Counted from the stretch's first letter, positions 43,676 to 63,176 are shown. The stretch: DNA of 64,000 nucleotides from a bacterium (GCA_029780855.1 JAKOXV010000003.1:84953-148952), one strand, 5' to 3'. Notes: generated from the sequence alone by a model not told the origin. A program made the numbers and translations.

Positions 43676-44350
43676 CTACTGCGCGTCTGTGGCGTTGATC
43701 GCCGATAAGACTTCTTTAGGAACCTGAGGGAACTTTGCGGTTGTTAGTATAAGTTCTGGCGGGTTGGAAACAAGTTTCCAGCGGCCGTCTTCCTTATGTA
43801 CCACCACTCTAAAGATATCGAAGTAGCTTGTTCGCCGCTGTTCGGCGGTGAGACGTGGAACAATTAGCGCGCCGTACCACGTGCCGTCACCGTACATCTT
43901 TTCGGTGTTAATTTCGTACTGACTTGCGAGCAATGGCAGGGCGCTGTTCAGTGTGGCACGAATCTGAGATGATTCGGTGCTCAGTAGTGAACCGAGTGCA
44001 GTGTCGGTGAGGGCCAGAGTAATGTCTACGGTTACGGGTTTAGAGTCAACGACGATTTTACGGTCTTTTTTGGTGTACTGGTCGCCGGCCGTGGCTTGCC
44101 AAACATAGTCCCCTTTAGTGAGTTTAATAGTTTGAGGTGAAGAAACTTCTTGGACTAGATTTGAGTCGTTGATAATTTGGGCGTTTGGTGTGTCGCCCCC
44201 CGGTGATTTATAAAACTTAACGGTTACACCTTTTGTAGGGCTAACAAAGTTTACGGTCACCGTTTGCTTTTTGGGTAGCAATTTGTACACCGCGTAGCCT
44301 GCCCCACCAATAACCGCGACGATTATCAGGAGTGTAATAAATCGTCTCAT
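43676..44350 (-). CDS. hypothetical bitopic membrane protein (last gene of the T4SS-like operon)
   Basis: One N-terminal TM helix (FITLLIIVAVIGGAGYAVY) and a beta-rich ectodomain. 4-nt overlap with the upstream gene. Confidence 0.5.
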   Translation of the reverse strand: MRRFITLLIIVAVIGGAGYAVYKLLPKKQTVTVNFVSPTKGVTVKFYKSPGGDTPNAQIINDSNLVQEVSSPQTIKLTKGDYVWQATAGDQYTKKDRKIVVDSKPVTVDITLALTDTALGSLLSTESSQIRATLNSALPLLASQYEINTEKMYGDGTWYGALIVPRLTAEQRRTSYFDIFRVVVHKEDGRWKLVSNPPELILTTAKFPQVPKEVLSAINATDAQ

Positions 44351-44973
44351 TGCTGGCCTCCGGTTGTTCCGCTAAACGGATTGGTAAAATTGGTGAACGT
44401 AATATCGTAATTAGTTGGGTCAAAACCCCATTTGCGGATTTCGGCTATTGCTACCTGTCTGCCTACCGGCGTGGAGGCAGAAATATACAGGCGAAGATCA
44501 CCGTTTGCTGCATTCCCGTAATCTATATTGAAAAGCGGGCTTTTGTATGGAAGGAAGCCAAGAATAGGATTCTCTTTTAGGTACTGCTGGCCTGCCTGAT
44601 CCGAGCTGTTGCCAACAACCCCTTCAACCTTCAAAAACTCGGCTTGATGTGTAGAGGCATACTGCTGTGCGGCGGTTGTTTTCGGTGTGAGAAGTGCGGT
44701 AATAGGTATAGTAGTCGGCACGGTAAATTTCTTTGATACCGTGCTGAAACCATCACTGCTGACCAGCAGGGTGTGTTCGCCCTCTTTTAGATAGACGGTT
44801 CCCTGACCAACTGATTGGTTATCGATCTTGATAGTGGCAATACGAGGGGCCACCACAATCTCTACGGATTTTTTACCGAGCCGGTTTAGAGCCTGAATAA
44901 GTACAAACCCAATGATTACACCAAGCGTGATGACTATCAGGAGAATGATTTGTTTAGTTCTATTTTGCTGCAC
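44347..44973 (-). CDS. hypothetical bitopic membrane protein with a PEGA-like beta-sandwich
   Basis: TM helix IILLIVITLGVIIGFVLI. VEIVVAPRIATIKIDNQSVGQGTVYLKEGEHTLLVSSDGF resembles a PEGA domain. It is contiguous with the upstream stop. Confidence 0.5.
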   Translation of the reverse strand: MQQNRTKQIILLIVITLGVIIGFVLIQALNRLGKKSVEIVVAPRIATIKIDNQSVGQGTVYLKEGEHTLLVSSDGFSTVSKKFTVPTTIPITALLTPKTTAAQQYASTHQAEFLKVEGVVGNSSDQAGQQYLKENPILGFLPYKSPLFNIDYGNAANGDLRLYISASTPVGRQVAIAEIRKWGFDPTNYDITFTNFTNPFSGTTGGQQ

Positions 44974-46926
44974 CTACTTCTTCCTAAACCATCTTATTGT
45001 TGAACCGTCCCAGCCGGTGGGGCCAATCTTCTCCACATTATCCGCCATTGGTGCGCGGCTATCAAGCGAGGATGATGCGATCGGCCCGTTAAAGCCTGGC
45101 TGATTCCCTACCCAGAAGAAGGTGTGGCCGTTATCTTCCCCGCTGGCAGTGGTATAAAAGCCAACATCTCCCGGCTGTAAGTCGGCACTGTTAGTAATAA
45201 TGCCAAGCTCTTGCCAGTTTTCACGTGCCCACTTTAGCTGGGTTGGAGTGGCCCCTCCTTTGCCGGCGTAGTTATAGTTGGGTTCAAAACCGCTGTCGAT
45301 CATGGCAGTAGTCACAAATCCTCCACAGTCGACACCCGGATAATTTATTCCCCCGACATACCGTCCTTCGCTGCGTGCTTTTGCTACAGCATCGGCATAT
45401 TCAGGCTTCATGGTTTGGTATGGTTTTCGGTGGTATTCCGGCCAGGCGTAGTTTAGAGCGGTGGCAATTATTCCCTGCCCATTAACGGCGCTACCACCAC
45501 AGCCGTTTGTGCCCGTCCCGGTGGTTGGTACAGCTTTTTCTATCCCCTCAACAATTGCGTTAGCGTAGGCGGATTTTTGCTCGTCATTCAGTCCGCTACC
45601 ACCACCCGCTTCTAGGTAAATCCACGGAACTTTAGCAAACAATTGAACGAGTGGAATGTTTCCTGGTTCCAATCCGGCACGCCCGTCAAAGCTATTGTCT
45701 TTTACCTGCACCTGAGCGCCATTGGCCATTTCCTTGGCGTCACGGGCTGCTTTCATGGTCTGGGCATACTGCTGGCTTTTATCGGCAATAGCTTGATCGG
45801 TAAAGGTAACTTTATTGGGTTCGGTACCTCGGTATAAGCCGACCTTTTGGGTATAGATTTCTCCCCAGGTTCCAAAATCTATTCCTGGGTTGTCATGAAT
45901 ACTAACCGCAACGGTAGCATTGGCGCTGGTGCCAAGATCCGCTCGCTGCCGCAAGGAAACCGTATCGTTTACGTCATTTTTAGTCATGACCACGCGGTAA
46001 CCGGCTTGTTCCAGAGCGGTTTTAGCACGGCTGGCAACGTCAAACACATCGTTCATTTCTGGCTGGTTTGGATAGTCATGGTCGGTTAAACCGGTAGCGG
46101 GGTCTTTGGTGGATACATCTGTTCCGCTATGTCCAGGATCCAGTAGGATAACCGCTTGACCGGTACTTGTGGAAGTAGACGTAGAGGTAGATCCAGATAT
46201 GCTGGTGCTGGCAGTGGCTTGTAGGCCGCCGGCTTTTGCTTGATCCAGGATACTTTGCGCATTGGCTATACGTTCTGGCTGTGGCGCTCCATCGTGTCGT
46301 TCGTATTCAACTTCAAACAATAGCGTCGCAGAAGCTACGTCTGTTGTAGCTTTTAGTTTATCGGCAAAGCCTTTTAGGTATCCTTCGGTGAGTGTGTACC
46401 AGAGGTAGTCTAGCTGGAGGGTTAAATCACCGGCGATTATCCCCTTTTCTTGTGAGATCCGGCGCAGGTCATCCTTATAGTTGCTTGCGGTAAACTGCAC
46501 GATACCGTAGCCGGCGCCGCCCGGGGGCACGTTATCATCCAAACTGGATGGCTGCCCAGCAACCGAGATTTCGCCCCTGGAGTTGGCGAATCCATACTGT
46601 ACGAGGCGAGGTTCAAAATGGGATTCACTCTGCATGTTGCCCAAGATACCAGCCGCCTGGAAATCGGTCAGTCCCTTACCCACCAAGTAGTTGAATATTT
46701 TTGCCATATTATCATCACCGGCAAGGATTGATGATGAGGTAGCTTGACACTCTTTGCTGGGGTCGTAGTAGACAGTGTTATTGATGATAGAACGTAAGTC
46801 GCTGTAGGTTACGCCGGCGCTGGCTTTTGCGGTCAGCACGATGAATGATGACATGAACAAGGCCATGAAGAGCGAAAAAGCTCGGAACAGCAGCAGTTTC
46901 TTTTTGATAGTTAGCAGTTTTTTCAT
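44974..46926 (-). CDS. secreted three-domain peptidoglycan hydrolase: lysozyme-like, MurNAc-L-Ala amidase and NlpC/P60-or-CHAP-like domains
   Basis: A signal peptide is present. AAGILGNMQSESHFEP matches the tail-lysozyme-type motif. ILLDPGHSGTD...AVSIHDN matches the Amidase_3 pattern. GVDCGGFV...GDVGFY...GHTFFWVG is a papain-like Cys/His pattern. Confidence 0.75.
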   Translation of the reverse strand: MKKLLTIKKKLLLFRAFSLFMALFMSSFIVLTAKASAGVTYSDLRSIINNTVYYDPSKECQATSSSILAGDDNMAKIFNYLVGKGLTDFQAAGILGNMQSESHFEPRLVQYGFANSRGEISVAGQPSSLDDNVPPGGAGYGIVQFTASNYKDDLRRISQEKGIIAGDLTLQLDYLWYTLTEGYLKGFADKLKATTDVASATLLFEVEYERHDGAPQPERIANAQSILDQAKAGGLQATASTSISGSTSTSTSTSTGQAVILLDPGHSGTDVSTKDPATGLTDHDYPNQPEMNDVFDVASRAKTALEQAGYRVVMTKNDVNDTVSLRQRADLGTSANATVAVSIHDNPGIDFGTWGEIYTQKVGLYRGTEPNKVTFTDQAIADKSQQYAQTMKAARDAKEMANGAQVQVKDNSFDGRAGLEPGNIPLVQLFAKVPWIYLEAGGGSGLNDEQKSAYANAIVEGIEKAVPTTGTGTNGCGGSAVNGQGIIATALNYAWPEYHRKPYQTMKPEYADAVAKARSEGRYVGGINYPGVDCGGFVTTAMIDSGFEPNYNYAGKGGATPTQLKWARENWQELGIITNSADLQPGDVGFYTTASGEDNGHTFFWVGNQPGFNGPIASSSLDSRAPMADNVEKIGPTGWDGSTIRWFRKK

Positions 46927-46929
46927 AGC

Positions 46930-49900
46930 CTACGGTGCCTGCCCTACTCCATTTACGACCGTGTCGGATAGAGCTGCATAGTTGAAGGGGTGGATGTTTC
47001 CGGGTTTGTAATTGTCAGGTGCGGCGCTTGCCCAGTCAATTACCGTAAAGCCCTTGGAGCTCGCCAGGCGGTTCAGTATGTCATTCATAGCTGGATACTG
47101 GCTTCCGGAGTCAGCGGTTGAATACAGGTTAGTCCAGTAGATCTTGGTGTTTGGATTTAAGCCCTTTATTTTATCGATCAGCGCTGAAACATTCCCTTCA
47201 AATGCTGGATCTCCAGGGTCATTGGTGCCCAGCCCTACCACGACTACGCCGGCGTTTTTGACGATATCCTGATCCTGGTCGACCTGCGTAAAGCCACCAG
47301 GCGTAGGACCGCTGCTGCCGGTTCCGCCACAACCAGGACCACTTAGGTCAGTTTTAAGGTGTCGGCCACAGAGTGCTGATATGTCGATCTTTCGCCAACC
47401 TTTTTGGGTCAGTTTATCGTTGAGTGAGCCGCTATCACGCATTCCAACGGTTAGTGAATCACCAAGAACATAAATGTTACTGTTTTGTGCACCGGAACTG
47501 GCCGAATCTTTGGTGGGGTTAGCTAGGTCTTGGGTAAGGATTTCTACCGAGGTTGCATCCAGCCCTTTATATATGCGGTAGTGCAGGGCTTCATCGGTGG
47601 AAAGCGAGGCTACGCTACAATCTGCATCTTCTTTTACCCGTTTGTTGGCATCGTACTGACTGGCGTCGGTAAAACACTTCTGGTACTTGTTATCGAGGTC
47701 GGCGATGTTGTAGTGAGCTTTTATATAGGCTTCATTACCGGAGAGTGAAAAATCTTCATCGGTTTTCATTTTGTTGATTTCGTCTTGCGAATAGCCCCAT
47801 TGCAACATTCCGTAGTGTGGGTCGTAACCATTTGCTTCAGCCGCCAGTGCTGGTTTGGTTACAAAAGAGAATGGCATAGATAAGGTGCGCAGTGAAAAAA
47901 TAGAACCGATCTTCATGAAACCAGTCCGTAAGGTATTTGATATACCCAGCAAGCTGGTGGGGGTTTGGGCAACCACGCTACCGGTTATTGAGTACGGGTT
48001 GTGTATAGAGAAGTACCGAGCGAATACGCTTTGTCGTGCCCAGTGATCTTTTAGATCCTGGCGGCTGGCGGCATCTGCAACTAACGTTTCCTGTTCAGTC
48101 ATTGGCCGGCCGTATAGGCTAGTGCGGATAGATTGGTTCTGGGCTACATCGGTACCAATACTTGCCCGTTCATAGTAGTCAGCGCCCTTCTCCATTCCAG
48201 TAAAGGACTGGTTTGATACAGCCATGCTGACATACTGCAGACCCAGGGCATAGAGGCTCATACCGCCGAGTGTCAACATTCCCTTTGCGGAGAATACGCC
48301 TCTCGCGCTACTGACGACCGACTTGCCCAATTCATTGATGATAATTGTCGCCATGCCCTTGCCACCTTCTTCTTTAGCAACTGCGGCTTCGGGACCAGTG
48401 AGCACACCAATCGCAGTGGTGACCGCAACCTCTGCTACGACTCCAGCGATTAGACCCTCAGGACTGAGGAGTGCATTACAAAACTGTTTATCTACTTGAT
48501 CAGTGGCACCGCCAATTAAACCGCCGAAACCAGGGATATTCTTTGCGACTCCGGTTAAACCGCCAGAAGCTAGAAATGTGGGACTGGTTACGGCATTGAT
48601 GATGTTAGTCAAGGTGCTGCTGGCGCCGCCCGGCTCCAGCCTGGGCGCCTGAAAGTTTTCCGGATACGTCGGAGTTTGGTTGCTATTAACCTGGTACTGG
48701 TATGCAGGTGAAGCTTCTGCATCGGCAAGCTGTACGCTGCCGGCTCCTATGGCGTTACTCAAACCACCGGCGTCACCATAGCCGGTTTTGGCTTGGTCGC
48801 CCATGGCAGTTACATGTAACCCTTCCCGGGCTGCGTTATCCATGTTGGATCTGGCGGCTTCTTCTAAGCGGTCAGGACTAAATGCTTCGTGAGCCATACA
48901 GGCCATGGAGGCAACAATAGTGGCGGTTCCTACTTTGCTGGCAACATCGGCCACTTTGGTTGCGGTTTGGGTATTAGCGGTGAATGATTTTTGGGCGGCT
49001 TCATAGAGTTCAGGCGGGTATGGTTTACCACGGTCATCGAGGAATTTACGGATTTTATCGGGATTTGTAAGGTCGTCTTTGGTTTGATCAACAATATCAA
49101 TACCGGTGTCAGCAGGTACTTTGCCCTCCGTGACTTTTTGGTTGGCTTCCACTAAATTTTCTGTTTGAGCTTTTACTTCACTTAAACCAACAAAGTTTCT
49201 GGCTGCTTGCCGCCACGCAGAAAAGTCAAAACCGATATTTTTGGCCACCGTATCAAACGCCGCGCTCCGGATGTAGCGTTCTGAAAACGCCTCATTATCG
49301 CTCACTACAGACTTAACGCTATCAACGAACTTTGAGCGAACCTGGGCACGTTCCCTAAAATTACTAATCTTGCCAAGATCTGAATATGACTCGCCATGCC
49401 CAAGATCCCGGGCTACCGTATCTAGTGTCACTCGCCTATTCTCTATCTGCACTCCGTTGACGTTTCCGTCTCCATCGAACGTAAAGTTGAACTTGCCGTC
49501 GCTGCCCAAGGCGGCCAGGTCTCTGTTGGGGTCTATTCCCCGTACTTTCTGCCACAGCGAGCGGTCAGCAAGCTCTAATGACCCGTTTCCGCGGGCCAAA
49601 GCACCATCAAACAAGTTTTGGGTGTTCCGCTCATTCATTATGCCGTTCAAGCGCGCATAGCCAGCTCCGGTGAGTACTTCAGAAAAATGGATCACCTTGA
49701 GTGACGACATCGCAATAAAGATAATTATGATCGCCGCCAGACTTAGAACGCCGGTGATTCCGAGTGCAAAAAAGCCCTTTTTACGGCGGTTACGGCGTTG
49801 CGTATTTGGCGGGGTGTCATTGTAGAAACCGCCACCATTTTCTAGATCGTCTTGCTCTTCCGATTCTGCTTCGGTGGTTGCTTCGCCAGTTCCGGCGTCT

Positions 49901-49959
49901 TCCTCGGCAAGCGCCAAGCCCGCTGCATCCAATCTATCTTGCTGGTCGGTATCGGCCAC
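46930..49959 (-). CDS. 1009-aa membrane protein with an acidic N-terminus, a large unknown ectodomain and a C-terminal SGNH/GDSL hydrolase domain
   Basis: TM helix FFALGITGVLSLAAIIIIFIAM. Gly/Ala-rich hydrophobic segments occur around aa 470-600. The C-terminus has IYVLGDSLTVG (block I) and VVVGLGTNDPG (block III). Confidence 0.6.
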   Translation of the reverse strand: MADTDQQDRLDAAGLALAEEDAGTGEATTEAESEEQDDLENGGGFYNDTPPNTQRRNRRKKGFFALGITGVLSLAAIIIIFIAMSSLKVIHFSEVLTGAGYARLNGIMNERNTQNLFDGALARGNGSLELADRSLWQKVRGIDPNRDLAALGSDGKFNFTFDGDGNVNGVQIENRRVTLDTVARDLGHGESYSDLGKISNFRERAQVRSKFVDSVKSVVSDNEAFSERYIRSAAFDTVAKNIGFDFSAWRQAARNFVGLSEVKAQTENLVEANQKVTEGKVPADTGIDIVDQTKDDLTNPDKIRKFLDDRGKPYPPELYEAAQKSFTANTQTATKVADVASKVGTATIVASMACMAHEAFSPDRLEEAARSNMDNAAREGLHVTAMGDQAKTGYGDAGGLSNAIGAGSVQLADAEASPAYQYQVNSNQTPTYPENFQAPRLEPGGASSTLTNIINAVTSPTFLASGGLTGVAKNIPGFGGLIGGATDQVDKQFCNALLSPEGLIAGVVAEVAVTTAIGVLTGPEAAVAKEEGGKGMATIIINELGKSVVSSARGVFSAKGMLTLGGMSLYALGLQYVSMAVSNQSFTGMEKGADYYERASIGTDVAQNQSIRTSLYGRPMTEQETLVADAASRQDLKDHWARQSVFARYFSIHNPYSITGSVVAQTPTSLLGISNTLRTGFMKIGSIFSLRTLSMPFSFVTKPALAAEANGYDPHYGMLQWGYSQDEINKMKTDEDFSLSGNEAYIKAHYNIADLDNKYQKCFTDASQYDANKRVKEDADCSVASLSTDEALHYRIYKGLDATSVEILTQDLANPTKDSASSGAQNSNIYVLGDSLTVGMRDSGSLNDKLTQKGWRKIDISALCGRHLKTDLSGPGCGGTGSSGPTPGGFTQVDQDQDIVKNAGVVVVGLGTNDPGDPAFEGNVSALIDKIKGLNPNTKIYWTNLYSTADSGSQYPAMNDILNRLASSKGFTVIDWASAAPDNYKPGNIHPFNYAALSDTVVNGVGQAP

Positions 49960-49993
49960 GATGTTTCCTATAACTACCTTTATGTTTATTTAA

Positions 49994-51919
49994 TTATACA
50001 CCGGGGTATAATCTGTTTGCTAAATCTATAGTACCCTCAGGTTTATTTATTTCACCCTGCTGACCTGTAGCTGCCTGAACCTGTTGCGGATTAGTAGAAA
50101 TTAACCCGGTCTCTGTAGGACTGGCGGTAATCTGGATATGGACGTGGTTCTGGCCGGCAAAGAACAGGCCTTGCCCAACGGGGAACTGACTAAGCCGCTT
50201 CTTTTCTTCACTGGTAAGCTTAAATACGTCAGATAGTACATCCACCGCTGAAGGCGATTGCTTGAGCAGAAGCTGCATAGAAGCGTTGGCCACAATTGCG
50301 CGACCCATACGTGAACCCATAAAGTCTTCCACATCTTGAGAAATGGTGGTTACCCCCAGGTTGTATTTACGGGCCCGCTTAGCAAGACTAAACAGGAAGT
50401 TGGCTGAGTCTTCGTATTTCATAAGCTGCCACGCCTCGTCGACGATCAGGATGCGACGTTTTTGGTCGGTTTTGGTCTTGTTCCAGATGTAGTTGAGTAC
50501 GATATACATAGCAACCGGGCGGAGTTCATCCTCAAGATCGCGTACGTTAAAGACCACCATTGGGTTATCGATATCAATATTTGATTGCTGTGAAAAGATT
50601 CCCGCAAAGGTACCGCTCGTATACTTACGCAAACGCTGAGCTAACTGCGGTCCGGTGCCACCCATATGCAGTAGCGTGTCGTAGAGGTCAGTAATAGTTG
50701 GCGGTGTACCGGTGTGCGTAAGTGGGTCGTTGGTGATACCGGCTTTGGCGTACGTTTCAATCAGCGCAGCATCAAGGTCGGCTTCTTCTACCGGAGTAAG
50801 CGCGGGCGCTACCACCTGGTTACCAGCACCAGAGAGCATCTGTGCCTGTGCTCCGCCCATCATTAAGCGCAATAGACCGTGGAGCGTAATCAGGTTACTA
50901 CGGAGTGCGTTATCGGCCTCTTCTGTATCCACGACTTTTGGAAGATCAAATGGATTTATGCGGGTTGCGGAATTGAGGCTCAAGCGTACATATGCCCCGC
51001 CCACCGCATCACACATGCGCTGGTATTCGTTTTCTGGGTCAATAATAAACACTTCCGTACCAAACATCATGCTGCGGAGCGCCTCAAGCTTTACGGCAAA
51101 AGATTTACCAGCACCAGATTTTGCAAACACCGTAGAGTTGCTGTTTTCCAGGGTAAAGCGGTCAAAAATTACCAGCCCTGAGTTGTGCATATTTATGCCG
51201 TATAGGATTCCGTTGTCCTGGCTCAGATCGGCAGAGGTAAATGGAAAGCTCGTGCTGAGTGCGCCGGTGCTCATGTTGCGGCGGATTTGTAGCTGGTCGG
51301 TAAATTGCGGAATGGTACTATTGAGCGCTTGTTCTTGCTGGGAGGTGGCTGGCTTGGAGTACACGAGCTGCTGTCCCAAAATCGATTCCACTTTGTGGGA
51401 TACAAATTCCAGCTCATCCATACTGTTGGCATAAAGCGTGAAATACAGTCCAAACCGGAAAAAGCGTTCTTCACCCACCTGTAGTTTGTCGCGCATTTCT
51501 TCGGCGTCCATGATAGCGGCCTGTTTGCCTGGATCACGCACTCTTCCCTTTTCGGCGTCAATTTGCAGCCCTGCTTCAAGCTGACCTACTTTTTTACGAA
51601 GGTTTTCCAGAACAATCTGACTTTCAACCGGGTATATGAACATAGAAAGGTCGATCACCTCGTCAAGGTTTACCATACCACTCAACCAACCGGTGTACAG
51701 CTGGCGCGGGTAGCCAAAAACGTAGTACGTACGGGCAAAACGAGTACCAAGGTGAAAATAATTTGGCTTGAATTCTATGGAACTTGGCGCAATAAAGTCC
51801 CTAAGTGCCGTTATGCCCTTGCGAAACGCTTCCTCAACTTCCATTTGCTCGCGTTGCTGCTGGGCTTGTGCGAGTGATACGGGGTCTGTTGGAGGGTTTT
51901 GTTTTTTACCAAACGCCAT
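49994..51919 (-). CDS. virB4: VirB4/TrbE/PrgJ-family type IV secretion ATPase
   Basis: Walker A KSGAGKSF and Walker B ILIVDEAWQLM. The N-terminus has a FIAPSSIEF...RTYYVFGYP block typical of monoderm VirB4 homologues. Confidence 0.85.
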   Translation of the reverse strand: MAFGKKQNPPTDPVSLAQAQQQREQMEVEEAFRKGITALRDFIAPSSIEFKPNYFHLGTRFARTYYVFGYPRQLYTGWLSGMVNLDEVIDLSMFIYPVESQIVLENLRKKVGQLEAGLQIDAEKGRVRDPGKQAAIMDAEEMRDKLQVGEERFFRFGLYFTLYANSMDELEFVSHKVESILGQQLVYSKPATSQQEQALNSTIPQFTDQLQIRRNMSTGALSTSFPFTSADLSQDNGILYGINMHNSGLVIFDRFTLENSNSTVFAKSGAGKSFAVKLEALRSMMFGTEVFIIDPENEYQRMCDAVGGAYVRLSLNSATRINPFDLPKVVDTEEADNALRSNLITLHGLLRLMMGGAQAQMLSGAGNQVVAPALTPVEEADLDAALIETYAKAGITNDPLTHTGTPPTITDLYDTLLHMGGTGPQLAQRLRKYTSGTFAGIFSQQSNIDIDNPMVVFNVRDLEDELRPVAMYIVLNYIWNKTKTDQKRRILIVDEAWQLMKYEDSANFLFSLAKRARKYNLGVTTISQDVEDFMGSRMGRAIVANASMQLLLKQSPSAVDVLSDVFKLTSEEKKRLSQFPVGQGLFFAGQNHVHIQITASPTETGLISTNPQQVQAATGQQGEINKPEGTIDLANRLYPGV

Positions 51920-51921
51920 GG

Positions 51922-52851: not shown

Positions 52852-52884
52852 TTATTAAAACCCACCCCTAACTTAAAATTTGAT

Positions 52885-53916: not shown

Positions 53917-53931
53917 GGTTAGGTCCAACCC

Positions 53932-56847
53932 TTACTTCTCTTCTTGTGGTTCATTGCCTCGAATAATTTCATCAGTGCCTGGAGCGGCCCTTCTGCTAAG
54001 CCCTTTTTCGACAGATTTTCTTGCAGCCTCTATTTCATCGCTGGTAAGTGGACGATTACCAGCTTCATTCTGCCTATTCTTAACCTCAGAACTAACCAGT
54101 ATGTCCATAATGTTGCTTCGTAGGGAGGCGTTGTTGTATGACGCATATGCAGTCTCGAGCACTTGCCTAATCTCACCAGCTTTTGAGGATCCTCCGGTAA
54201 GGGCGTGGATCATAGTGTTACCAAGCATGTTGCCTTCACCAATCTTAAGACCCTTAGAGGAACCGATATCTTGGACACTCATCTTCTCGGCTTGCTCAAC
54301 TGCAGCGCGGCTGTCTGGTGCAACAGCTTTCCAGCCACCTTTTGTGGTCTTGCCATCTTTGCCCGTTACCTCTAGTTCGCTATCCCACACGGTGGAATAG
54401 CCAGTTTTGGTGAGCGCACCCGCTCTACCACCGGCAACTTCAGCAGAGGTCTTGAAGGTGTTACCCATTCCAGGCATTTCCCCGTTAAGCTGGTTGGCGA
54501 GAGTGGAAATTTCAGTTGCATCAGTGAAGCCCATTGAAGCTTTAGCGAGCCCTGCGGCACCGGCAATCGATGCTCGGCCGTACTCCTCGCTTCGGTGGGC
54601 GGCATACAAGAAGGAGGCATTGTTGCGGAGCTGTTCGGCCGCCATAACGGCGTTTCGGTCTATATCGCCCTTGCTGTCTCGCTTTTGTTCAAGTTGTTTT
54701 GCTAGGGTTTCAATTCCACCCTGGGTGCCATCCCATTTGGTAAGCGCTCCAAGTGCCTGATCATTCATGCCTGAGCGTGATAGAACGCCAGAGAGTTTTT
54801 CGGTTGCATCCCATTTGGACTGCCCAATTTGGCCCATAAGTGCAGCTCCGCCGGTGTAGCCAATTGCTCTTCCTACCTCGGATTTACCAAACCTAATCTT
54901 TGCGGCACTCTTGGGATCTACCATACTACTCGCAAGGCTGTTGTATTTTGCAAACCGGCTTCCTTCACCAAAGAGGCGACTCTCAGATGCCCTGGTTCCC
55001 AGTTCTTTGACCTGTTCGCCACGTTTTGCGGTGCGGCCACGGCGGAAGTTGCGGAGACGGTCAAACGCGCCCCGGCCACGGTCATTAACCATACCGGATA
55101 GGTTGGCGACTGCACCGCCAGATAACCTAATGGCATAAGGAAGGGCGAAGTACGGGCCAAAGTAACAAACAAATTTCACGAATGTTGCAAAGAAACCGGT
55201 TGGGTCAGAAAACGTTGCGTCAACTAACCCCGCAAAGCTACGTCCCATAGCAATAAACCCAACAATAATCGGGTACACAATCAAAGATCTGGAGAAAAAG
55301 TCGTACCAGAGTTTCCAACCTTTTTGGGTGTTCGGAAGTATGAACATAACGATTGCCAACGGCGCCACAATAACTAAGAACGCAATAATAACCTGACGTA
55401 ATACCAGTACAGCTAGGGCAATGATGACTCCAAGCGCGGCTGTAACGATGAAGCTAAGCATTCCAAGGCCACCCAAGATACCAAAGCCTGCAAGCAGTCC
55501 TAGACCTCCCACGGCGACTTGACCAGACCATACCTCAATACCATTGTTTGTGGCACTAAAAGCACGGGTGATTATATTTCCCACATCTGCGCCGATTACA
55601 TTGGTGGCATCAATTGCAAACTTCATCAATGGCCAAGAAAAGGTAATCATAATGACCGCGGCAATAATACGTGGCAGCACCTTTTTTACGGTGTAGGCAT
55701 CAAAAACCCCAAAACCTAATGCCTGGGAAATGACCATTACTAACCCAACAATCACTAGCAGACCTAATGCAATGGTTCTAAAGTTGCTCCAGGCATTGTA
55801 GAGAGAACTATTGCTAGACATTAACGTTCCGGTATCAAATTTGAGGGTATCACTAATCGCGGTGTCTAGCTTTTTGACCACATCTTGTGCAGCGTTAATA
55901 AGCCCACAGAACAGCCAGTTCAGCGGGTTAAGCCAATTAAGACCGTCGACGTGGCAAGTAATCCCCGTATCCCCATTGGCGTCAGTGCTTCCAGAAGCTC
56001 CCGCTTGCCCCACAGTGGCATCACTATAGGCGTTGCTAGGCATCGCAATCGGGTAATCTACGTCACTGTTCACTGCAGAATCGTTCGAGACAATCTTACA
56101 GTTCGCGTCACCAGAATTTGCAGTGTTGCTCCCACCATCCGCAAGTTCGTACATTCGCATGTTGTTACCCGAGACATAAATGTTATCTACACACGTTTTG
56201 TTTTGCTGGCTAAACTCTTTATCACGCATGTAGCGGTTAGGGTCAATTGTGGACTTGGTAAAATCCCAGTCACTATTATCATCAACACGGTGGATCACGT
56301 TCCCATCAGAGCTGTAGTAGTAAATAAAACTGTTTGGCTGCACGTTATTTAGAGATATGGAAACACTATTTGGGTCGCTGTTCTGACATTTTGTAGCAGT
56401 ATTTGAACTAAGAAAATCAACGTCAATCGTTGCCTTACTGAAATCGTAGGTGTTTTCTGCAGCGGTGCGCTTAGGGTCGGTGGTGCCTCGGTTGAGGTTT
56501 GCGAGAGTAAGTGTCGCATGACAGCTTGTGTGCCCGTCCGGGCTTAACCACCCAACCCCATTGAAGTTTGCCGAATCAACCGAGTTGCTATTGTTGCGAG
56601 AATTGGTTGAGGTAAATCGGACCACTTGAGAACCGATCTTTACATCGATGTTGCTGCGGTTTATCCAGGTACCGGAAGCGTTCTTAATATCGTCGTTACT
56701 AACTGCAGAAGCGTCTGCATGGGTTGAGTTATCCTGTGCGTTAGCAGTACCGGGCTTGAGGATCGGCAAGAAGATTGATGCTAGGAATCCCACCATCAGT
56801 ACATAAAAAAATACTTTCTTACTATTTCTTTTTGACGCTAGCTTCAT
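53932..56847 (-). CDS. VirB6/TrbL-like polytopic channel protein with large N-terminal ecto- and C-terminal soluble domains
   Basis: 971 aa. It has a signal/anchor, a ~330-aa Asn/Ser/Asp-rich ectodomain, ~7 TM helices (aa ~360-610) and a ~360-aa C-terminal domain. It sits immediately upstream of the PrgI-like gene, as VirB6 homologues do in monoderm T4SS operons. Confidence 0.55.
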   Translation of the reverse strand: MKLASKRNSKKVFFYVLMVGFLASIFLPILKPGTANAQDNSTHADASAVSNDDIKNASGTWINRSNIDVKIGSQVVRFTSTNSRNNSNSVDSANFNGVGWLSPDGHTSCHATLTLANLNRGTTDPKRTAAENTYDFSKATIDVDFLSSNTATKCQNSDPNSVSISLNNVQPNSFIYYYSSDGNVIHRVDDNSDWDFTKSTIDPNRYMRDKEFSQQNKTCVDNIYVSGNNMRMYELADGGSNTANSGDANCKIVSNDSAVNSDVDYPIAMPSNAYSDATVGQAGASGSTDANGDTGITCHVDGLNWLNPLNWLFCGLINAAQDVVKKLDTAISDTLKFDTGTLMSSNSSLYNAWSNFRTIALGLLVIVGLVMVISQALGFGVFDAYTVKKVLPRIIAAVIMITFSWPLMKFAIDATNVIGADVGNIITRAFSATNNGIEVWSGQVAVGGLGLLAGFGILGGLGMLSFIVTAALGVIIALAVLVLRQVIIAFLVIVAPLAIVMFILPNTQKGWKLWYDFFSRSLIVYPIIVGFIAMGRSFAGLVDATFSDPTGFFATFVKFVCYFGPYFALPYAIRLSGGAVANLSGMVNDRGRGAFDRLRNFRRGRTAKRGEQVKELGTRASESRLFGEGSRFAKYNSLASSMVDPKSAAKIRFGKSEVGRAIGYTGGAALMGQIGQSKWDATEKLSGVLSRSGMNDQALGALTKWDGTQGGIETLAKQLEQKRDSKGDIDRNAVMAAEQLRNNASFLYAAHRSEEYGRASIAGAAGLAKASMGFTDATEISTLANQLNGEMPGMGNTFKTSAEVAGGRAGALTKTGYSTVWDSELEVTGKDGKTTKGGWKAVAPDSRAAVEQAEKMSVQDIGSSKGLKIGEGNMLGNTMIHALTGGSSKAGEIRQVLETAYASYNNASLRSNIMDILVSSEVKNRQNEAGNRPLTSDEIEAARKSVEKGLSRRAAPGTDEIIRGNEPQEEK

Positions 56848-56926
56848 AATCTCTGTTCAGTATAGCAAAGACACTATAACTTAAACAGAATAATTTTACA
56901 GACGAATTCGCAAGTCTATACGGCTT

Positions 56927-57955
56927 TTATTTCAGAACTACGTACTGAGCATTCGTTTGGGTATTGAGGTATGTACCATCAGCTTGCCGTACGAATATAT
57001 AGGTACTGACGCCCTGAGTTGTGACGACCGGCTTGTTGGCGGTGTTAGCTAGTATTTGGTCACGGTCTTCCCATGACTTAGACTCAGCCCAGTACAAATC
57101 AACAGGTTCATCAACGGTAATCTTGATAGTCTTACTATCAATAGCCGTGGCGTGAATAGCAGAACTTGGTATGTCTTTTATGTCATATATATGAGCCATA
57201 TCCTGGCCATAATTGTTCATGAACTCTTGGACTTTTGGTTCGTCATTCTTGAGGTATCTGATAAGGTCCTGGTGATTCGTTGTGGCTGAGAGGATTTGTT
57301 CGTCACCAGTGGTCCTATAAGCGGCAATGCGGTCGTAGAACTGCTGAAGCATGGTGCGCTGCTCTAACGAATTCTGAGCAATATATTCAGGAGTAACCGG
57401 CTGGCCTCCATCAATAGGAGTGCCAATCTCTGATACGCTAATCACCTCACCATTTAGTCGTTGGGCATGGTTGCCGTCATTTACTACTTCTACGGCCGTG
57501 GTGGTGGTTGAAGGTGCTTCGGTACTTTGCGGAGTATTGTTTGCAACTTGTTCCTGTGGATCAGCTACGACTTTGTCCCCTTTTGATCCTGAGGTTAGGT
57601 ACGCACCACCAAGCACGCCTGCTGCAAGTGCCAAGCCCGCACCAATTTTTGCCGTACGACTATTGCGTAGGCGCTGCCACCCAGAAGAATTAGCTTCAGG
57701 TGCTTCACGATGAGTTGTCGCGACTTTAGAAGTATTGTCAATTTCTGGGCGAAGTCGTGTGGCGCTTTGGCGCTCCTCTGTAAGGTTTGCGGATAGTCCT
57801 GGTGTTTTCGCGTCGAGTACAGGAGTATCAGTAGAGGGGTTTCCGACGGTATCAAAGAGAGTTCCCTGAGCATCACTTACTTCCGCCGGAACAATATCGG
57901 GCTGTTCCTGTGAGTTAGAGGTTTTAGGTGAATGTGGTTCGTGTGCAAGCGTCAT
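56927..57955 (-). CDS. bitopic membrane protein, first gene of the T4SS-like operon (VirB8-like topology only)
   Basis: Disordered N-terminus, one TM helix (IGAGLALAAGVLGGAYL) and a ~200-aa alpha+beta C-terminal domain. A good SD (AAGGGGA) precedes the ATG. Confidence 0.5.
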   Translation of the reverse strand: MTLAHEPHSPKTSNSQEQPDIVPAEVSDAQGTLFDTVGNPSTDTPVLDAKTPGLSANLTEERQSATRLRPEIDNTSKVATTHREAPEANSSGWQRLRNSRTAKIGAGLALAAGVLGGAYLTSGSKGDKVVADPQEQVANNTPQSTEAPSTTTTAVEVVNDGNHAQRLNGEVISVSEIGTPIDGGQPVTPEYIAQNSLEQRTMLQQFYDRIAAYRTTGDEQILSATTNHQDLIRYLKNDEPKVQEFMNNYGQDMAHIYDIKDIPSSAIHATAIDSKTIKITVDEPVDLYWAESKSWEDRDQILANTANKPVVTTQGVSTYIFVRQADGTYLNTQTNAQYVVLK

Positions 57956-58099
57956 GGGTGTCCCCTTTCTGCTTATTAAGATTTGTAATGCGCTCAGGAA
58001 GAACGTTACAGTTCATTATACCACTAATGTTTTGAAAAGTCAATGATTGGGGTGCGCAACTCTTTTATTAGGAAAACTTTTAGGGTAAAATGCAATAAA

Positions 58100-58615
58100 A
58101 TGAACGATCAAAACCAAAACAATCCAAAACCAGATTATGGATTTATCCTTAATCAACAGGCACCTACCCCGAAGCCCAAGCACAGTAAAAAGGTGCTTGT
58201 ACTGATTGGGCTTGGCGGTGTACTGATCGTTGCGTTAATAGGTTCGTATGTACTTACTAGCTCGCTCAATAAAGTGAGTAACCAGACGCAAACCAACCAG
58301 GCGGCCGCTGCCACCCACTTGCGGAACATCGCTAGCGGTGATACAGCAGCGGCATATAGCGAACTCAGCACCAATACCCAAACCAACTACACCCAAGAAG
58401 CCTATAAGAGCGAAGTGCTCAAAACGCTCACCGATAAGATAGACATCGGTACCTGCAGTGAAGATACTGCAAAACATACCGCCACCACGGTATACTTTGC
58501 TTGCTCCAGTAGTGATAAAAAGTTCAAAGTAACACTTAAGCTGGTAACTACAGAGGAAAACTCTCAAACACGTATTCAGCGTTATGAAGTGGTGGGAGCG
58601 GAGAAAGTGTCATGA
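58100..58615 (+). CDS. bitopic membrane protein, first gene of the pilin operon
   Basis: ORF 58043-58615 trimmed to MNDQNQNNPKPDYGF. It has one TM helix (VLVLIGLGGVLIVALIGSYVL) and a small ectodomain with 2 Cys. Confidence 0.45.
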   Translation: MNDQNQNNPKPDYGFILNQQAPTPKPKHSKKVLVLIGLGGVLIVALIGSYVLTSSLNKVSNQTQTNQAAAATHLRNIASGDTAAAYSELSTNTQTNYTQEAYKSEVLKTLTDKIDIGTCSEDTAKHTATTVYFACSSSDKKFKVTLKLVTTEENSQTRIQRYEVVGAEKVS

Positions 58616-59268
58616 AAAAACTGATTTTTATCGTCTTTTTGCTCGCCGTCATGGTTGCGCCGTTTATGGTGAGCAAGCCAGCGGCTGCAGCTGCTGACCC
58701 CGGGTGTTATGAAGTTGTTCCGGTCCCAGGGATTGGTGCAGCAGTAGGTAAAGTCGACTGTAGCGTTCTTTCGTTCTATGCAAGCAATTGGGGCGGAGCT
58801 GCACCAGGAGAATGTTGGATAATAGGCTTATCCGCTTCAGGTTTGCCTGAAGGCTCACCGCAGCCACAAAAACAGGACTGTGCCACGCTAACCGTAACGG
58901 CGCAATCTAACCTAGATGGCACGATAGACACCGTGGATCAGGCGCGATCCAGGATTATTAATGACCAGCGCCAGCAGGCGAATGCGAGCAGTCCGGTAGG
59001 TTGTGCGTACTCTGATTTACAGAACCAATCAGACAACTGTACGATTATGCACTACGTTAATATTGTGATTGATGTGCTATCTGCGGCAGTTGGTATTATA
59101 GTGATAATCATGATTGTCGCTGGCGGCATACAATACATAACAGCAGGGGGCGATCCCCAAAGGGTAACTGCAGCGAAAGCTCGCATAGCAAACGCCGTGC
59201 TTGCATTAGTGGCGTTCTTGTTCCTCTTCGCCTTCTTGCAATGGATCGTACCAGGAGGACTATTTTAA
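58612..59268 (+). CDS. T4SS pilin-like protein 1 (VirB2/TrbC-like C-terminus fused to a ~130-aa Cys-rich ectodomain)
   Basis: Signal peptide (...KPAAAAA), 7 Cys in the ectodomain, then a helix - IQYITAGGDPQRVTAAKARIANAVLALV - helix module. Confidence 0.65.
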   Translation: MKKLIFIVFLLAVMVAPFMVSKPAAAAADPGCYEVVPVPGIGAAVGKVDCSVLSFYASNWGGAAPGECWIIGLSASGLPEGSPQPQKQDCATLTVTAQSNLDGTIDTVDQARSRIINDQRQQANASSPVGCAYSDLQNQSDNCTIMHYVNIVIDVLSAAVGIIVIIMIVAGGIQYITAGGDPQRVTAAKARIANAVLALVAFLFLFAFLQWIVPGGLF

Positions 59269-59657
59269 TGTTTTGGACACAGATTTTTGCAGCGGCCTGT
59301 AACAAGGGGCAAACCTTTTTTGGGCTCCCACCATGGTACCAGTACGTGCCTACCGAAAGTTACACGCCGCCCGGCGGCGTAGAACAGTGCCGCGTGTTGG
59401 TAGATTTCACGGCGCACCCGCGCGACATCTTGCTGGTTAGCTTTGGTATTTTCGATATCTTACTTAGGATTGCTGGCATGATTGCGGTCGGGTACGTGAT
59501 CTACGGAGGATTTCTGTACATGACCAGCCAGGGTGAGCCTGACAAGACTCAGAAAGCCAAGAATACTCTACTGGGAGCATTTATTGGACTGATTATTGTG
59601 CTCATTGCAGTGCCGCTGGTAACGTTTATTGGTAATTCTATTGGAGGAAAACTGTAA
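59268..59657 (+). CDS. T4SS pilin-like protein 2
   Basis: TAATG overlap with the upstream gene. It has the helix - FLYMTSQGEPDKTQKAKNTLLGAFIGLI - helix module. Confidence 0.6.
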   Translation: MFWTQIFAAACNKGQTFFGLPPWYQYVPTESYTPPGGVEQCRVLVDFTAHPRDILLVSFGIFDILLRIAGMIAVGYVIYGGFLYMTSQGEPDKTQKAKNTLLGAFIGLIIVLIAVPLVTFIGNSIGGKL

Positions 59658-59658
59658 G

Positions 59659-59994
59659 ATGTTTAGTTTTTTGCTGTATAAAACCGCCGTACGTTTTGCC
59701 GAAGCAATCAACGTCAATAGCCTACCGGGAGCAAAGAACCCTGACCAGACCCAGGCCTATGTGAGTAAGAACGGCGCGATTTTAGAAATTACTCGCCTGG
59801 TATTTGGCGCTTTTGGTGCAATCGCAGTGTTAATTATTGCCATAGCGGGCGTACAGTACGTGATTTCTCAGGGTGAAGCGCAAAAAATTTCTAAAGCAAA
59901 AAACACCATTATTTATGCAGTGCTCGGCCTGATCATTTCAATCACCGCCTACGGAATTGTTAGCTTTGTACTGAATAGGATCAATGTATCATGA
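59659..59994 (+). CDS. T4SS pilin-like protein 3
   Basis: Starts 1 nt after the upstream stop. It has the helix - VQYVISQGEAQKISKAKNTIIYAVLGLI - helix module and no obvious cleavable signal peptide. Confidence 0.6.
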   Translation: MFSFLLYKTAVRFAEAINVNSLPGAKNPDQTQAYVSKNGAILEITRLVFGAFGAIAVLIIAIAGVQYVISQGEAQKISKAKNTIIYAVLGLIISITAYGIVSFVLNRINVS

Positions 59995-60383
59995 AAAAAC
60001 TAATGGTTGGATTACTGGCTATAGTGTCGGCGCTGGGCTTGCTCACACTTGCTCTTCCCGTCCACGCCGCCGATGTAGTAGGTGGTGCCTGTGGCGTGCC
60101 GGGAGCATCTGGCTCGTCGATATGTTCAAGCACCGGCGCTACTAACCCCGTTTCAGGATCAGGCGGCGTGCTCATGCAGGCCATAAACCTGATTGCTATC
60201 GGTGGTGGTATTGCTGCAGTTATTGTCATTATTGTTGCCGGAGTAAGATTTATTACCTCAAACGGTGACCCTAATAATGTTACTGCTGCTCGCAACACTA
60301 TTCTGTACGCCGTTATCGGTTTGGTCGTTATTGTGGTGTCCCGTTCAATCGTGGTGTTTGTTATAAACTACATAAATAAATAG
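59991..60383 (+). CDS. T4SS pilin-like protein 4
   Basis: ATGA overlap with the upstream gene. Signal peptide ...LPVHA-AD and a Cys pair (GGACGVPGASGSSICSS). It has the VRFITSNGDPNNVTAARNTILYAVIGLV module. Confidence 0.68.
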   Translation: MKKLMVGLLAIVSALGLLTLALPVHAADVVGGACGVPGASGSSICSSTGATNPVSGSGGVLMQAINLIAIGGGIAAVIVIIVAGVRFITSNGDPNNVTAARNTILYAVIGLVVIVVSRSIVVFVINYINK

Positions 60384-60417
60384 GAATATAATAAGAAGGA
60401 ATAAAAGGAATACAGAC

Positions 60418-60825
60418 ATGAAAAAATTACTAATAGCCGTCGCCCTACTGTTTAACTTTAGTGCCGTAACGCTTGCGCTGGCTCCAGCTGCAGTCGTGCA
60501 TGCTGACACTAAAGCGTCGTTGTGTGAGGGTGTTGGCCTTACTTCTGACAATACCGGGTGTAATCAACCCACCAATCCTGATGGTTCGCCAAGCGGTACT
60601 TCGGTAGAAGGGATTATCAAGACAGCGATTAACCTGATTAGTGTCGTCGTTGGTGTTATTGCGGTAATCATGATCATCATCGGTGGATTGCGCTACATTA
60701 CCTCTGGAGGTGATTCTGCCAAGACGGCCAGCGCCAAAGATACCATCCTCTATGCCATCATCGGTCTGGTGATTGTAGCGCTCGCTCAGGTGATCGTTAA
60801 GTACGTGCTAAACAAGATAGGATAA
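60418..60825 (+). CDS. T4SS pilin-like protein 5
   Basis: Signal peptide ...VVHA-DT and a Cys pair (SLCEGVGLTSDNTGCN). It has the LRYITSGGDSAKTASAKDTILYAIIGLV module. Confidence 0.7.
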   Translation: MKKLLIAVALLFNFSAVTLALAPAAVVHADTKASLCEGVGLTSDNTGCNQPTNPDGSPSGTSVEGIIKTAINLISVVVGVIAVIMIIIGGLRYITSGGDSAKTASAKDTILYAIIGLVIVALAQVIVKYVLNKIG

Positions 60826-60901
60826 GCGGTATTTCCACTTGATGGACTACCTCCTATTGTGATATAACCAAAACAGCTTTAAAGAAAGGTTTATAAAAAT
60901 A

Positions 60902-61318
60902 ATGATTACAAAAGTAAAACTACTAGTTCTCTCGGCATTAATGGCTGTGGGCTTTTTGACTCCAGCACTAATTCCCGCCACGGTATCAGCTCAGGCAAAC
61001 ATTGAAAATGGTCTTTGTGCCGGTGCTAACCTGGATGCTACAAGCACCGAAAGCTGTAACGTAAACGATACTGCAGCAACAGACAAGATTAACGGCATTA
61101 TCAAACTGATCATCAACCTCTTCTCACTCGTTGTGGGAGTAGTATCGGTTATCATGATCATCATCGGTGGCCTTAAGTACATAACTTCTGGTGGAGACTC
61201 CGGAAATGTGACGAGCGCAAAGAACACTATTCTCTACGCCATAATCGGTTTAGTGATAGTTGCCCTCGCGCAATTTATCGTGCGCTTCGTTCTCTCAAAG
61301 TTGAGTCAGCAAGCGTAA
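60902..61318 (+). CDS. T4SS pilin-like protein 6
   Basis: Signal peptide ...TVSA-QA and a Cys pair (GLCAGANLDATSTESCN). It has the LKYITSGGDSGNVTSAKNTILYAIIGLV module and is the closest paralogue of protein 5. Confidence 0.7.
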   Translation: MITKVKLLVLSALMAVGFLTPALIPATVSAQANIENGLCAGANLDATSTESCNVNDTAATDKINGIIKLIINLFSLVVGVVSVIMIIIGGLKYITSGGDSGNVTSAKNTILYAIIGLVIVALAQFIVRFVLSKLSQQA

Positions 61319-61344
61319 TAGTTACGCCATAGACCTTTCCTTTA

Positions 61345-61378
61345 ACCACCCTCAAGATCATGGGGGTGGTTTTATTTT
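61345..61378 (+). terminator. Rho-independent terminator after the pilin operon
   Basis: accaccc (61345-61351) pairs with gggtggt (61364-61370), followed by tttatttt. Confidence 0.6.
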
Positions 61379-62778: not shown

Positions 62779-62868
62779 GGAAGGGTGACCGAGTGGTTTA
62801 AGGTAACGGTCTTGAAAACCGTCGTGCCGGAAACGGTACCGTGGGTTCGAATCCCACCCCTTCCGCCA
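62779..62868 (+). tRNA. tRNA-Ser (anticodon UGA), CCA encoded
   Basis: Acceptor ggaaggg/cccttcc. Anticodon stem acggt/accgt with loop cuUGAaa. Long variable arm. T-arm gtggg-ttcgaat-cccac. Discriminator G followed by CCA. Confidence 0.9.
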
Positions 62869-63019
62869 CGTTCTCATGTCTGCATCTTGTAGGCGGGAGA
62901 ACGTGCTGAACGGCTGTATTGAGAATCCACGCGGGTTCGGCGAACGAGGAGCGGAGATGAAAAGATGCTTGCATGTTTTTATCGAGCACCGCAGGAAGGA
63001 GTGCGCGTCAGCGCGCGAT

Positions 63020-63037: not shown

Positions 63038-63076
63038 AGTTTTTGCTATACTAGCCTGGTTCCATACATACAATAC

Positions 63077-63169: not shown

Positions 63170-63176
63170 AATTAAG

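Follow-up and report, generated by a model that had tools for sequence, protein, structure and literature searches.

A chromosomal type IV secretion system (T4SS) has been described in Saccharibacteria in a series of reports, with which we compare here the locus at positions 43676-61318 of a 64,000-nucleotide stretch of DNA (GCA_029780855.1, JAKOXV010000003.1:84953-148952; the window). The source organism is an uncultured Saccharimonadales bacterium. McLean 2020 found a T4SS region (VirB4, VirB6, VirB2 and PrgI) with four to six signal-peptide proteins in TM7x and most Saccharibacteria, and likened the array of signal-peptide genes to ptx/ptl (PMC7427843). Wang 2023 identified SEML1_0006-0019 of Candidatus Southlakia epibionticum ML1 (S. 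epibionticum), the one organism for which such a requirement is known, as essential for growth on its host by transposon sequencing, and placed the cluster nearest to the Gram-positive conjugative T4SSs, with an essential series of pilins and without recognizable coupling or relaxase proteins (PMC10633639). The Patescibacteria survey of Quinonero-Coronel 2025 described an ancestry within MPF-FATA, near-universal TrsD, PrgI/VirB3 and VirB6, VirB2 arrays of 2-11 genes, proximity to dnaA/dnaN and no relaxases (PMC12102498). In a T4SS review from 2025 the system figures as a new and recognized branch of the superfamily (PMC12857230). No other T4SS is known on which the growth of its own carrier bacterium depends, and the system is a leading candidate for the means by which Patescibacteria obtain what they require from their hosts.

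In S. epibionticum, recF is followed by genes for proteins of 249, 211 (PEGA), 643 (two lysozyme-like domains and a cysteine protease) and 1113 amino acids (aa; C-terminal DD-peptidase), then 612 (VirB4), 293, 300 (PrgI) and 998 aa ('type IV secretion system protein'). The cluster ends with proteins of 278 (NTF2-like, non-essential) and 1088 aa (TrbL/VirB6-like), six T4SS_pilin genes, hsp20, comFC and tRNA-Ser (PMC10633639).

Layout of the locus and its described counterparts

The locus in the window is the published chromosomal, origin-adjacent T4SS of Saccharibacteria with its own pilins. Since the system was published in 2020, 2023 and 2025, our analysis is a confirmation rather than a discovery, and the window provides one more environmental Saccharimonadales example, not a new kind of system. 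We consider it highly probable that the locus is a chromosomal, vertically inherited T4SS matching SEML1_0004-0019 of S. epibionticum. The original prediction, made from this sequence, was partly supported. Its observation of a monoderm-type, chromosomal, origin-adjacent T4SS was confirmed by the family assignments, the DnaA boxes and the synteny across many Saccharimonadales, and its functional reading was sound. Its claim of an undescribed system failed because the same locus had been reported in TM7x, S. epibionticum, the Patescibacteria survey and the T4SS review (PMC7427843, PMC10633639, PMC12102498, PMC12857230).

Families were assigned by profile searches against Pfam and NCBIfam, and membrane segments by hydropathy; the features are collected in Table 1. 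The map of open reading frames (ORFs) contained nine minus-strand ORFs that occupy 57955 to 43676 and are spaced by -4 to +79 nucleotides (nt), as originally proposed, and seven divergent plus-strand ORFs from 58043 or 58100 to 61318. In the nine-gene operon, the VirB4 ATPase is accompanied by PrgI/VirB3, the TrsD-like 309-aa protein and a long, polytopic protein resembling VirB6; the other five products are two wall hydrolases and three small bitopic proteins. The promoter region is shared with the divergent operon, which consists of one bitopic gene and six genes for VirB2-like pilins. Pfam agreed with the predicted PrgI, SGNH end, three-domain hydrolase and six pilins, and hydropathy with the predicted bitopic and polytopic topologies. 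The promoter-like site upstream of the nine-gene operon (11 of 12 matches) and the hairpin with its T-run past the last pilin gene each ranked top in the region. The total counts of promoter- and terminator-like sites in the region were not above chance; the best ones sit where both operons need them.

Table 1. Features of the T4SS locus, in window coordinates (TM, transmembrane segment; HSP, high-scoring segment pair; AF2, AlphaFold2)
Feature	Position	Strand	Evidence
224-aa bitopic protein, last operon gene	43676..44350	-	ORF; N-terminal TM at residues 4-22
208-aa bitopic protein, weak PEGA-like domain	44347..44973	-	Pfam below cut-off; TM at residues 8-26
650-aa secreted/anchored cell-wall hydrolase, three domains	44974..46926	-	Pfam
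1009-aa membrane-anchored protein, C-terminal GDSL/SGNH hydrolase	46930..49959	-	Pfam, hydropathy, HSP depth
VirB4 ATPase, 641 aa, CD1110/MPF-FATA kind	49994..51919	-	NCBIfam, Pfam, motifs
TrsD-like protein, 309 aa	51922..52851	-	NCBIfam, AF2 and Foldseek
PrgI/VirB3-like membrane protein, 347 aa	52885..53928	-	PF12666
971-aa extended VirB6-like polytopic protein	53932..56847	-	Hydropathy, weak family matches
342-aa first operon gene, near-orphan	56927..57955	-	Homologue searches
Sigma-70-like promoter match upstream of nine-gene operon	58015..58043	-	TTGACT, 17 nt, TG-TATAAT
171-aa bitopic protein, first gene of pilin operon	58100..58615	+	Alignment of positional orthologues
VirB2-like pilin 1, 218 aa, long Cys-rich N-terminal extension	58612..59268	+	PF18895, 28.5 bits (cut-off 26.6)
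VirB2-like pilin 2	59241..59657	+	PF18895, 2.9e-10
VirB2-like pilin 3	59629..59994	+	PF18895, 2.2e-9
VirB2-like pilin 4	59991..60383	+	PF18895, 1.5e-9
VirB2-like pilin 5	60418..60825	+	PF18895, 2.1e-15; TrbC, 4.9e-7
VirB2-like pilin 6	60902..61318	+	PF18895, 4.7e-14
Terminator-like hairpin just past last pilin gene	61344..61371	+	11-bp stem, then T-run

The cluster SEML1_0004-0019 is likewise flanked by dnaA-dnaN-recF and, at the opposite end, by hsp20, comFC and tRNA-Ser. The nine operon products measure 224, 208, 650, 1009, 641, 309, 347, 971 and 342 aa here, as against 249, 211, 643, 1113, 612, 293, 300, 998 and 278 aa in S. epibionticum. Both clusters contain six divergent T4SS_pilin genes, a PEGA-like small protein, a lysozyme-plus-peptidase hydrolase and PrgI, and neither has a recognizable coupling protein or relaxase. 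However, S. epibionticum has a second large VirB6-like gene (SEML1_0013, 1088 aa), placed between its NTF2-like gene and its pilin genes, that is absent from the window, a detail that is possibly new, while the bitopic gene at 58100-58615 is extra here and has no counterpart there. At the C-terminus of the protein after VirB4, the window has a GDSL/SGNH domain and S. epibionticum a DD-peptidase; in the middle of the hydrolase, the domains are Amidase_3 and a glucosaminidase/lysozyme, respectively. Compared with the T4SS of the Patescibacteria survey, we found nothing essential that differs (PMC12102498).

The MPF-FATA systems (pCF10 prgH-I-J-K-L, pIP501, CTn2/CD1110 and pGO1 trsC-D-E) share the order VirB6-like protein, PrgI/VirB3-like protein, VirB4, anchored multi-domain wall hydrolase and small bitopic proteins. 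The original prediction had noted this resemblance for pCF10. The window VirB4 exceeds the cut-off set for the CD1110 family model, and a TrsD-like gene precedes virB4 as in pGO1. In contrast to the conjugative members, the window has no relaxase, coupling protein or adhesin in view, nor an oriT, for which no dedicated search was made, and its locus occupies a fixed chromosomal site beside the origin. VirB2-type pilins, which it possesses, are absent from the Gram-positive conjugative systems according to the survey and the review (PMC12102498, PMC12857230), and make the system unique among monoderm T4SSs. Bordetella Ptl, Brucella VirB, H. pylori ComB and archaeal Ced likewise lack a coupling protein or relaxase and have a non-conjugative role. 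However, these are either diderm systems with VirB7/9/10 outer-membrane cores or archaeal, and no homology to the present locus was shown beyond VirB4, VirB3, VirB6 and VirB2.

The flanks were core genes, as had been proposed. Pfam identified jag/khpB-yidC-rnpA and dnaA-dnaN-recF on the recF side, and hsp20, comF and two tRNA-Ser genes lie on the far side. Five DnaA boxes were found within 140 bp at 39676-39814, just upstream of dnaA, one being a perfect TTATCCACA and four having one mismatch. This segment is likely oriC or the dnaA promoter region, which places the start of the locus about 3.8 kb from the likely origin. Pfam searches of every window ORF of at least 110 aa yielded no coupling ATPase (type IV coupling protein, T4CP), relaxase, integrase, or plasmid replication (Rep) or partition (Par) protein, in agreement with the original prediction. 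No adhesin family matched in the window, no direct repeats bracketed the locus, and its GC content was close to that of the adjoining core genes.

Conservation among relatives and a putative split motor

In a scan of one genome per bacterial species, 573 species-level genomes encoded a VirB4 relative. The conservation figures given here refer to the best 80 of these 573 stretches, nearly all labeled Saccharibacteria or Saccharimonadales, in which VirB4 was 83-91% identical to that of the window. The recurring order was comF, hsp20, five to nine pilin genes, sometimes a small bitopic gene, the large polytopic protein, PrgI, the 309-aa protein, VirB4, a 790-1710-aa protein, a lysozyme-containing hydrolase, one or two small bitopic proteins and recF-dnaN-dnaA. 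Most loci long enough to show it had the nine genes in synteny with recF-dnaN-dnaA at one end and with the pilins, hsp20 and comF at the other. The layout thus recurred in dozens of species, as the original prediction had proposed to check. The same layout at the same site in the relatives implied that the locus is inherited vertically at a fixed site. Together with the lack of conjugation and integration genes in view, this synteny pointed to a core machine rather than a mobile element, which is the role originally proposed. The checks that the prediction had named as able to refute it turned out in its favor, in that the profile searches upheld the assignments, relatives carry the locus and it has no bounding att sites.

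Conservation differed strongly between components. The median identity was 86% for VirB4 and 71% for the 309-aa protein (78 of the 80 loci), compared with 74% for DnaA and 69% for DnaN in the same loci, although the choice of loci by VirB4 similarity somewhat favors VirB4 in this comparison. The medians fell to 43% for PrgI, 40-50% for the pilins, 32% for the 971-aa protein, 28% for the 1009-aa protein and about 27-30% for the small bitopic proteins. This gradient, with a highly conserved motor, exposed parts at 27-45% and one orphan gene, may be useful to the field.

The VirB4 ATPase retained both the GAGKS and the DEAW motifs on which its original assignment was based. In Pfam it matched P-loop_TraG (1.2e-27) and AAA_10; in NCBIfam its score on NF045971 ('VirB4-like conjugal transfer ATPase, CD1110 family') was 350.8 bits, the cut-off being 325. 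The NF045971 match spanned profile positions 171-734 of 752, so that about the first 170 positions were missing. The 309-aa protein, which had been listed as unassigned, consists of a proline- and glutamine-rich disordered N-terminus followed by a domain homologous to the VirB4 N-terminal segment. Residues 73-176 corresponded to NF045971 positions 1-116 (1.3e-7). The protein also matched the N-terminal parts of two further VirB4 models in NCBIfam, and TrsD NF041427 at 6.6e-6, under the family cut-off. An AF2 model built with 53 homologues reached a mean pLDDT of 61.7, and its top 14 matches in a Foldseek search of the PDB were all entries with TrwK/VirB4 of R388 (probability 0.60-1.00, TM-score about 0.27). 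An identical protein carries the precomputed Pfam label PF26593 TraC-like. The profile of the 309-aa family found no match among PDB sequences, and hhalign gave no significant alignment between this family and the window VirB4; the link to VirB4 rests on NCBIfam and the fold search. We conclude that the 309-aa protein is TrsD-like, a detached VirB4 N-terminal segment, with SEML1_0009 as its counterpart. Because VirB4 covers the model from position 171 and the 309-aa protein covers positions 1-116, the profile alignments suggest a motor split between neighboring genes that are conserved together, one for the VirB4 ATPase and one for a TrsD-like protein with the missing N-terminal segment. A possible use to the field is this sequence-level evidence that a TrsD-like protein and VirB4 would together make one canonical VirB4.

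PrgI matched PF12666 (3.6e-11; 43.9 bits against a cut-off of 27) and has a TM at residues 30-48. Its length is 347 aa from a TTG start and 343 aa as annotated elsewhere. The 971-aa protein consists of a signal or TM segment, an ectodomain of about 330 aa with two invariant cysteines (C298 and C314), five TM segments (residues 359-535) and about 435 aa of hydrophilic sequence at the C-terminus. With its 1+5 TM segments and extensive hydrophilic domains, the protein has a topology compatible with an extended VirB6. The record carries a precomputed PF19590 TrbL_3 label, and TrbL matched weakly in 4 of 50 orthologues. The VirB6-like assignment is thus plausible but weak. The topology and the precomputed label speak for the VirB6/TrbL claim of the original prediction, and the local hmmscan, which found nothing, speaks against it. 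The counterpart in S. epibionticum is SEML1_0011. As a separate observation, neither the TrbL_3 label (53932-56847) nor the TraC-like label (51922-52851) was reproduced by local hmmscan at E=10, probably because library versions or HMMER filters differ.

Hydrolases, pilins and other variable components

The 650-aa hydrolase contains Phage_lysozyme2 (7.7e-32) and Amidase_3 (1e-14) domains, and a weak NlpC/P60 match (0.0029) that fell under the cut-off. Its domain content suggests that it would play a VirB1/PrgK-type role, with SEML1_0006 as its counterpart. Phage_lysozyme2 was kept in 34 of 42 orthologues. The partner domains of the lysozyme varied among these 42 proteins and comprised Amidase_3 (8), GDSL (7), C39-like (6), M23 (5), CHAP (5), NlpC/P60 (4), GH3 (3) and SLT_2 (2).

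The 1009-aa protein begins with a basic stretch followed by a TM at residues 64-82, and ends in a GDSL/SGNH domain (residues 829-991, 4.3e-12). By the depth of BLAST HSPs, residues ~550-780 were common to most aligning orthologues, whereas the GDSL end was common to only five. Its counterpart, SEML1_0007, has a DD-peptidase end instead. We scanned the last 330 residues of the large protein directly after VirB4 for domains in 71 genomes. VanY/M15 was the most frequent enzyme (20 of 71), followed by GDSL/SGNH (6, including this window), M23 (5) and Exo_endo_phos (2). Single cases were CHAP, Amidase_2, Amidase_5, M14, M74, NlpC/P60, GDPD, a phospholipase-C-type phosphoesterase and a tyrosine phosphatase. 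The C-terminal enzyme of the large protein after VirB4 is exchanged between species while the core is kept, and the lysozyme partners are shuffled likewise. Judging from the domain counts, this shuffling resembles polymorphic effector systems and would fit a conserved motor with fast-evolving host-facing parts; the census hints at a diversifying interaction with host envelopes. The pattern of species-to-species exchange on both hydrolase proteins may be new. In its available text, the 2025 survey reports that some VirB1 homologues bear extra M23 or LysM domains, and no systematic exchange of C-terminal enzymes (PMC12102498).

All six ORFs in 58612-61318 scored above the gathering score of PF18895 T4SS_pilin, and each encodes a signal peptide and two TM segments. 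Pilins 5 and 6 were 74% identical over the C-terminal core, and the remaining pairs 26-47%. The start of the bitopic gene ahead of them is most likely 58100 (171 aa), as originally placed. The 171-aa version is on record, while the 190-aa version starting at 58043 found only itself in the database search. In the 171-aa protein, a PDYxFILNQ motif is conserved on the cytoplasmic side of the TM, and the ectodomain contains two invariant cysteines. Its match to MecA_N (0.012) was non-significant, as was the weak match of a profile of its positional orthologues to the PBP5 N-domain (0.018). An NTF2-like fold is possible.

The small bitopic proteins have single N-terminal TMs. The 224-aa protein had no Pfam or NCBIfam match and had homologues of about 27% identity in seven loci; by position it corresponds to SEML1_0004 (prealbumin-like and BT0923-like folds in S. 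epibionticum). The 208-aa protein, which by position corresponds to SEML1_0005 (PEGA), matched PEGA at E 7.3e-4 and 19.8 bits, under the cut-off of 20.8. Local iterative hidden Markov model searches merged the 224-aa, 208-aa and 171/190-aa families, probably driven by the TM helices, and this result was not used.

The first gene of the nine-gene operon encodes a 342-aa protein with a disordered N-terminus, a weak glycine/alanine-rich TM at about residues 103-121 and an alpha+beta C-terminal domain. No homologue was found in the 80 loci, and among 5.8 billion proteins it was found alone. Against 1.84 billion representatives, a full HMMER search returned two marginal matches (E ~5e-4), and a single-sequence AF2 model (pLDDT 40) was unusable. 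The gene is essentially an orphan, though the adjacent genes are conserved, a detail that is possibly new. Its place in the operon is that of SEML1_0012, an NTF2-like and non-essential gene in S. epibionticum. The original statement that more than half of the coding capacity lacks an assignable function was an overstatement, as structure-based annotations exist for most of the S. epibionticum orthologues (PMC10633639).

Possible function and neighboring regions

In the mechanism we propose from what is established for T4SSs in general, VirB4 and the TrsD-like protein would dock on PrgI and the VirB6-like channel and power the extraction of pilins, exported beforehand by Sec, and their assembly into a filament or conduit. 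A breach in the epibiont wall would be cut by the lysozyme/amidase/peptidase and the SGNH protein, and through it the conduit could cross to meet the host cell. Macromolecules would then pass between host and epibiont, not by conjugation. We favor outward delivery of proteins, possibly including the hydrolase modules, over import; the variable hydrolase ends are the reason for this lean toward export and attack on the host envelope. More tentatively, the two proteins after VirB4 might be polymorphic, host-directed modules that breach envelopes, rather than housekeeping wall openers of the VirB1 type, so that a conserved engine would carry an interchangeable, host-matched 'drill bit'. This idea derives from the swapped enzymes, the near-orphan first gene and the fast-evolving pilins, as opposed to the near-invariant VirB4/TrsD motor. 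If it were true, the specificity of the system would follow the envelope chemistry of each epibiont's host.

Several points weigh against our reading of the locus as a vertically inherited, non-conjugative T4SS matching that of S. epibionticum. The match to SEML1_0003-0022 was made by gene order, sizes, annotations and flanks rather than by direct sequence comparison. The negative result for T4CP and relaxase covers the 64-kb window alone, and S. epibionticum has a distant, non-essential T4CP homologue according to the survey (PMC12102498). The model of the 309-aa protein is of moderate confidence, with low TM-scores. The 971-aa protein gave no match in a local hmmscan even at E=10, and its family profile found only chance hemagglutinin matches among PDB sequences. 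No VirB8-like component was demonstrated among the window proteins, the 342-aa model being unusable and the hints from the 171-aa family non-significant. The suggested function is carried over by analogy from one cultivated relative, and even there the literature terms the role 'completely unknown'.

Import is the first alternative, with a machine like H. pylori ComB or archaeal Ced taking up host DNA, nucleotides or other macromolecules to supply a cell unable to produce them. This hypothesis has been put forward in the literature (PMC12102498) and would be consistent with the absence of an export coupling protein in view, with comF and recF beside the locus, and with the weak similarity of VirB4 to the DNA-import ATPases CedB (1.6e-12) and CedD (1.1e-5), both far under the family cut-offs. 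Some orthologues of the 1009-aa protein also end in nuclease/phosphatase-type or phosphodiesterase domains. We judge it rather unlikely but keep it as a serious rival. Most of the variable domains act on peptidoglycan and not on nucleic acid, and the adjacency of comF may be a mere conserved neighborhood. In S. epibionticum the T4SS is essential, whereas competence through comEC is a distinct trait that the cells can do without (PMC12102498, PMC12857230).

A mainly adhesive organelle, in which VirB4 would assemble a multi-pilin fiber to hold the epibiont on its host and nothing would be translocated, we regard as distinctly improbable. In its favor, most relatives retain an array of diverged pilins like the six found here, such arrays are essential in S. 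epibionticum (PMC10633639), no T4CP is in view, and pilin diversity has been tied to host range (PMC12102498). However, Saccharibacteria already attach by type IV pili and dedicated adhesins (PMC10633639, PMC12857230), and two large multi-enzyme hydrolases and an extended VirB6-like channel exceed the needs of a fiber.

The idea of an integrated conjugative element or its decayed remnant, with T4CP, relaxase and integrase outside the window or lost, would draw on the membership of VirB4 in a family of monoderm conjugative elements (NF045971; phylogeny in PMC12102498) and on the two adjacent tRNA-Ser genes with att-like copies of their 3' ends, but we rejected it as largely refuted and scarcely credible, because dozens of species and S. 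epibionticum have the locus at the same place, with recF on one side and hsp20-comF-tRNA-Ser on the other, which indicates vertical inheritance, the window contains no mobility genes and no bounding repeats, the tRNA copies have no partner on the recF side, the GC content resembles that of the adjoining core genes, and VirB4 is more conserved than DnaA in the same loci.

The tRNA-Ser copies themselves lie within 62779-63350, where the 3' end of each tRNA-Ser gene is found again, unchanged, after the gene. In the first, ATCCCACCCCTTCCGCCA ends the tRNA at 62868 and occurs again at 63020-63037; in the second, GAATCCCTCCTCCTCCGCCA ends the tRNA at 63169 and occurs again at 63331-63350. They look like the att scars of tRNA-targeting integrative elements, although the copies are only ~150 nt from the tRNAs and the T4SS is not bracketed.

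The first 34 kb of the window form a large envelope-glycan cluster. Within it, the biosynthesis and export genes at 14000-32000 have a GC content of 0.38-0.41, clearly below the 0.45-0.51 of the rest of the window; a Wzt/ABC-2 exporter, an aminotransferase and a methyltransferase are encoded there beside numerous GT1/GT2/GT4 glycosyltransferases. These features suggest a surface-polysaccharide island that is variable or exchanged horizontally. At 12929-14040, within the ORF at 12068-14146, a 408-nt unit is repeated 2.7 times with 86% identity and encodes tandem immunoglobulin-like (N_BRCA1_IG) modules of a 692-aa secreted protein. The segment 34265-37000 encodes a 911-aa protein with a cutinase domain (1.4e-18), an N-terminal signal-like segment and a hydrophobic C-terminal stretch. 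As a surface ester or lipid hydrolase of a presumed epibiont of Actinobacteria, it could be aimed at the host envelope. Finally, a 156-aa protein encoded at 2390-2860 has the LexA DNA-binding domain alone (2.3e-15), with no peptidase domain in the Pfam scan.

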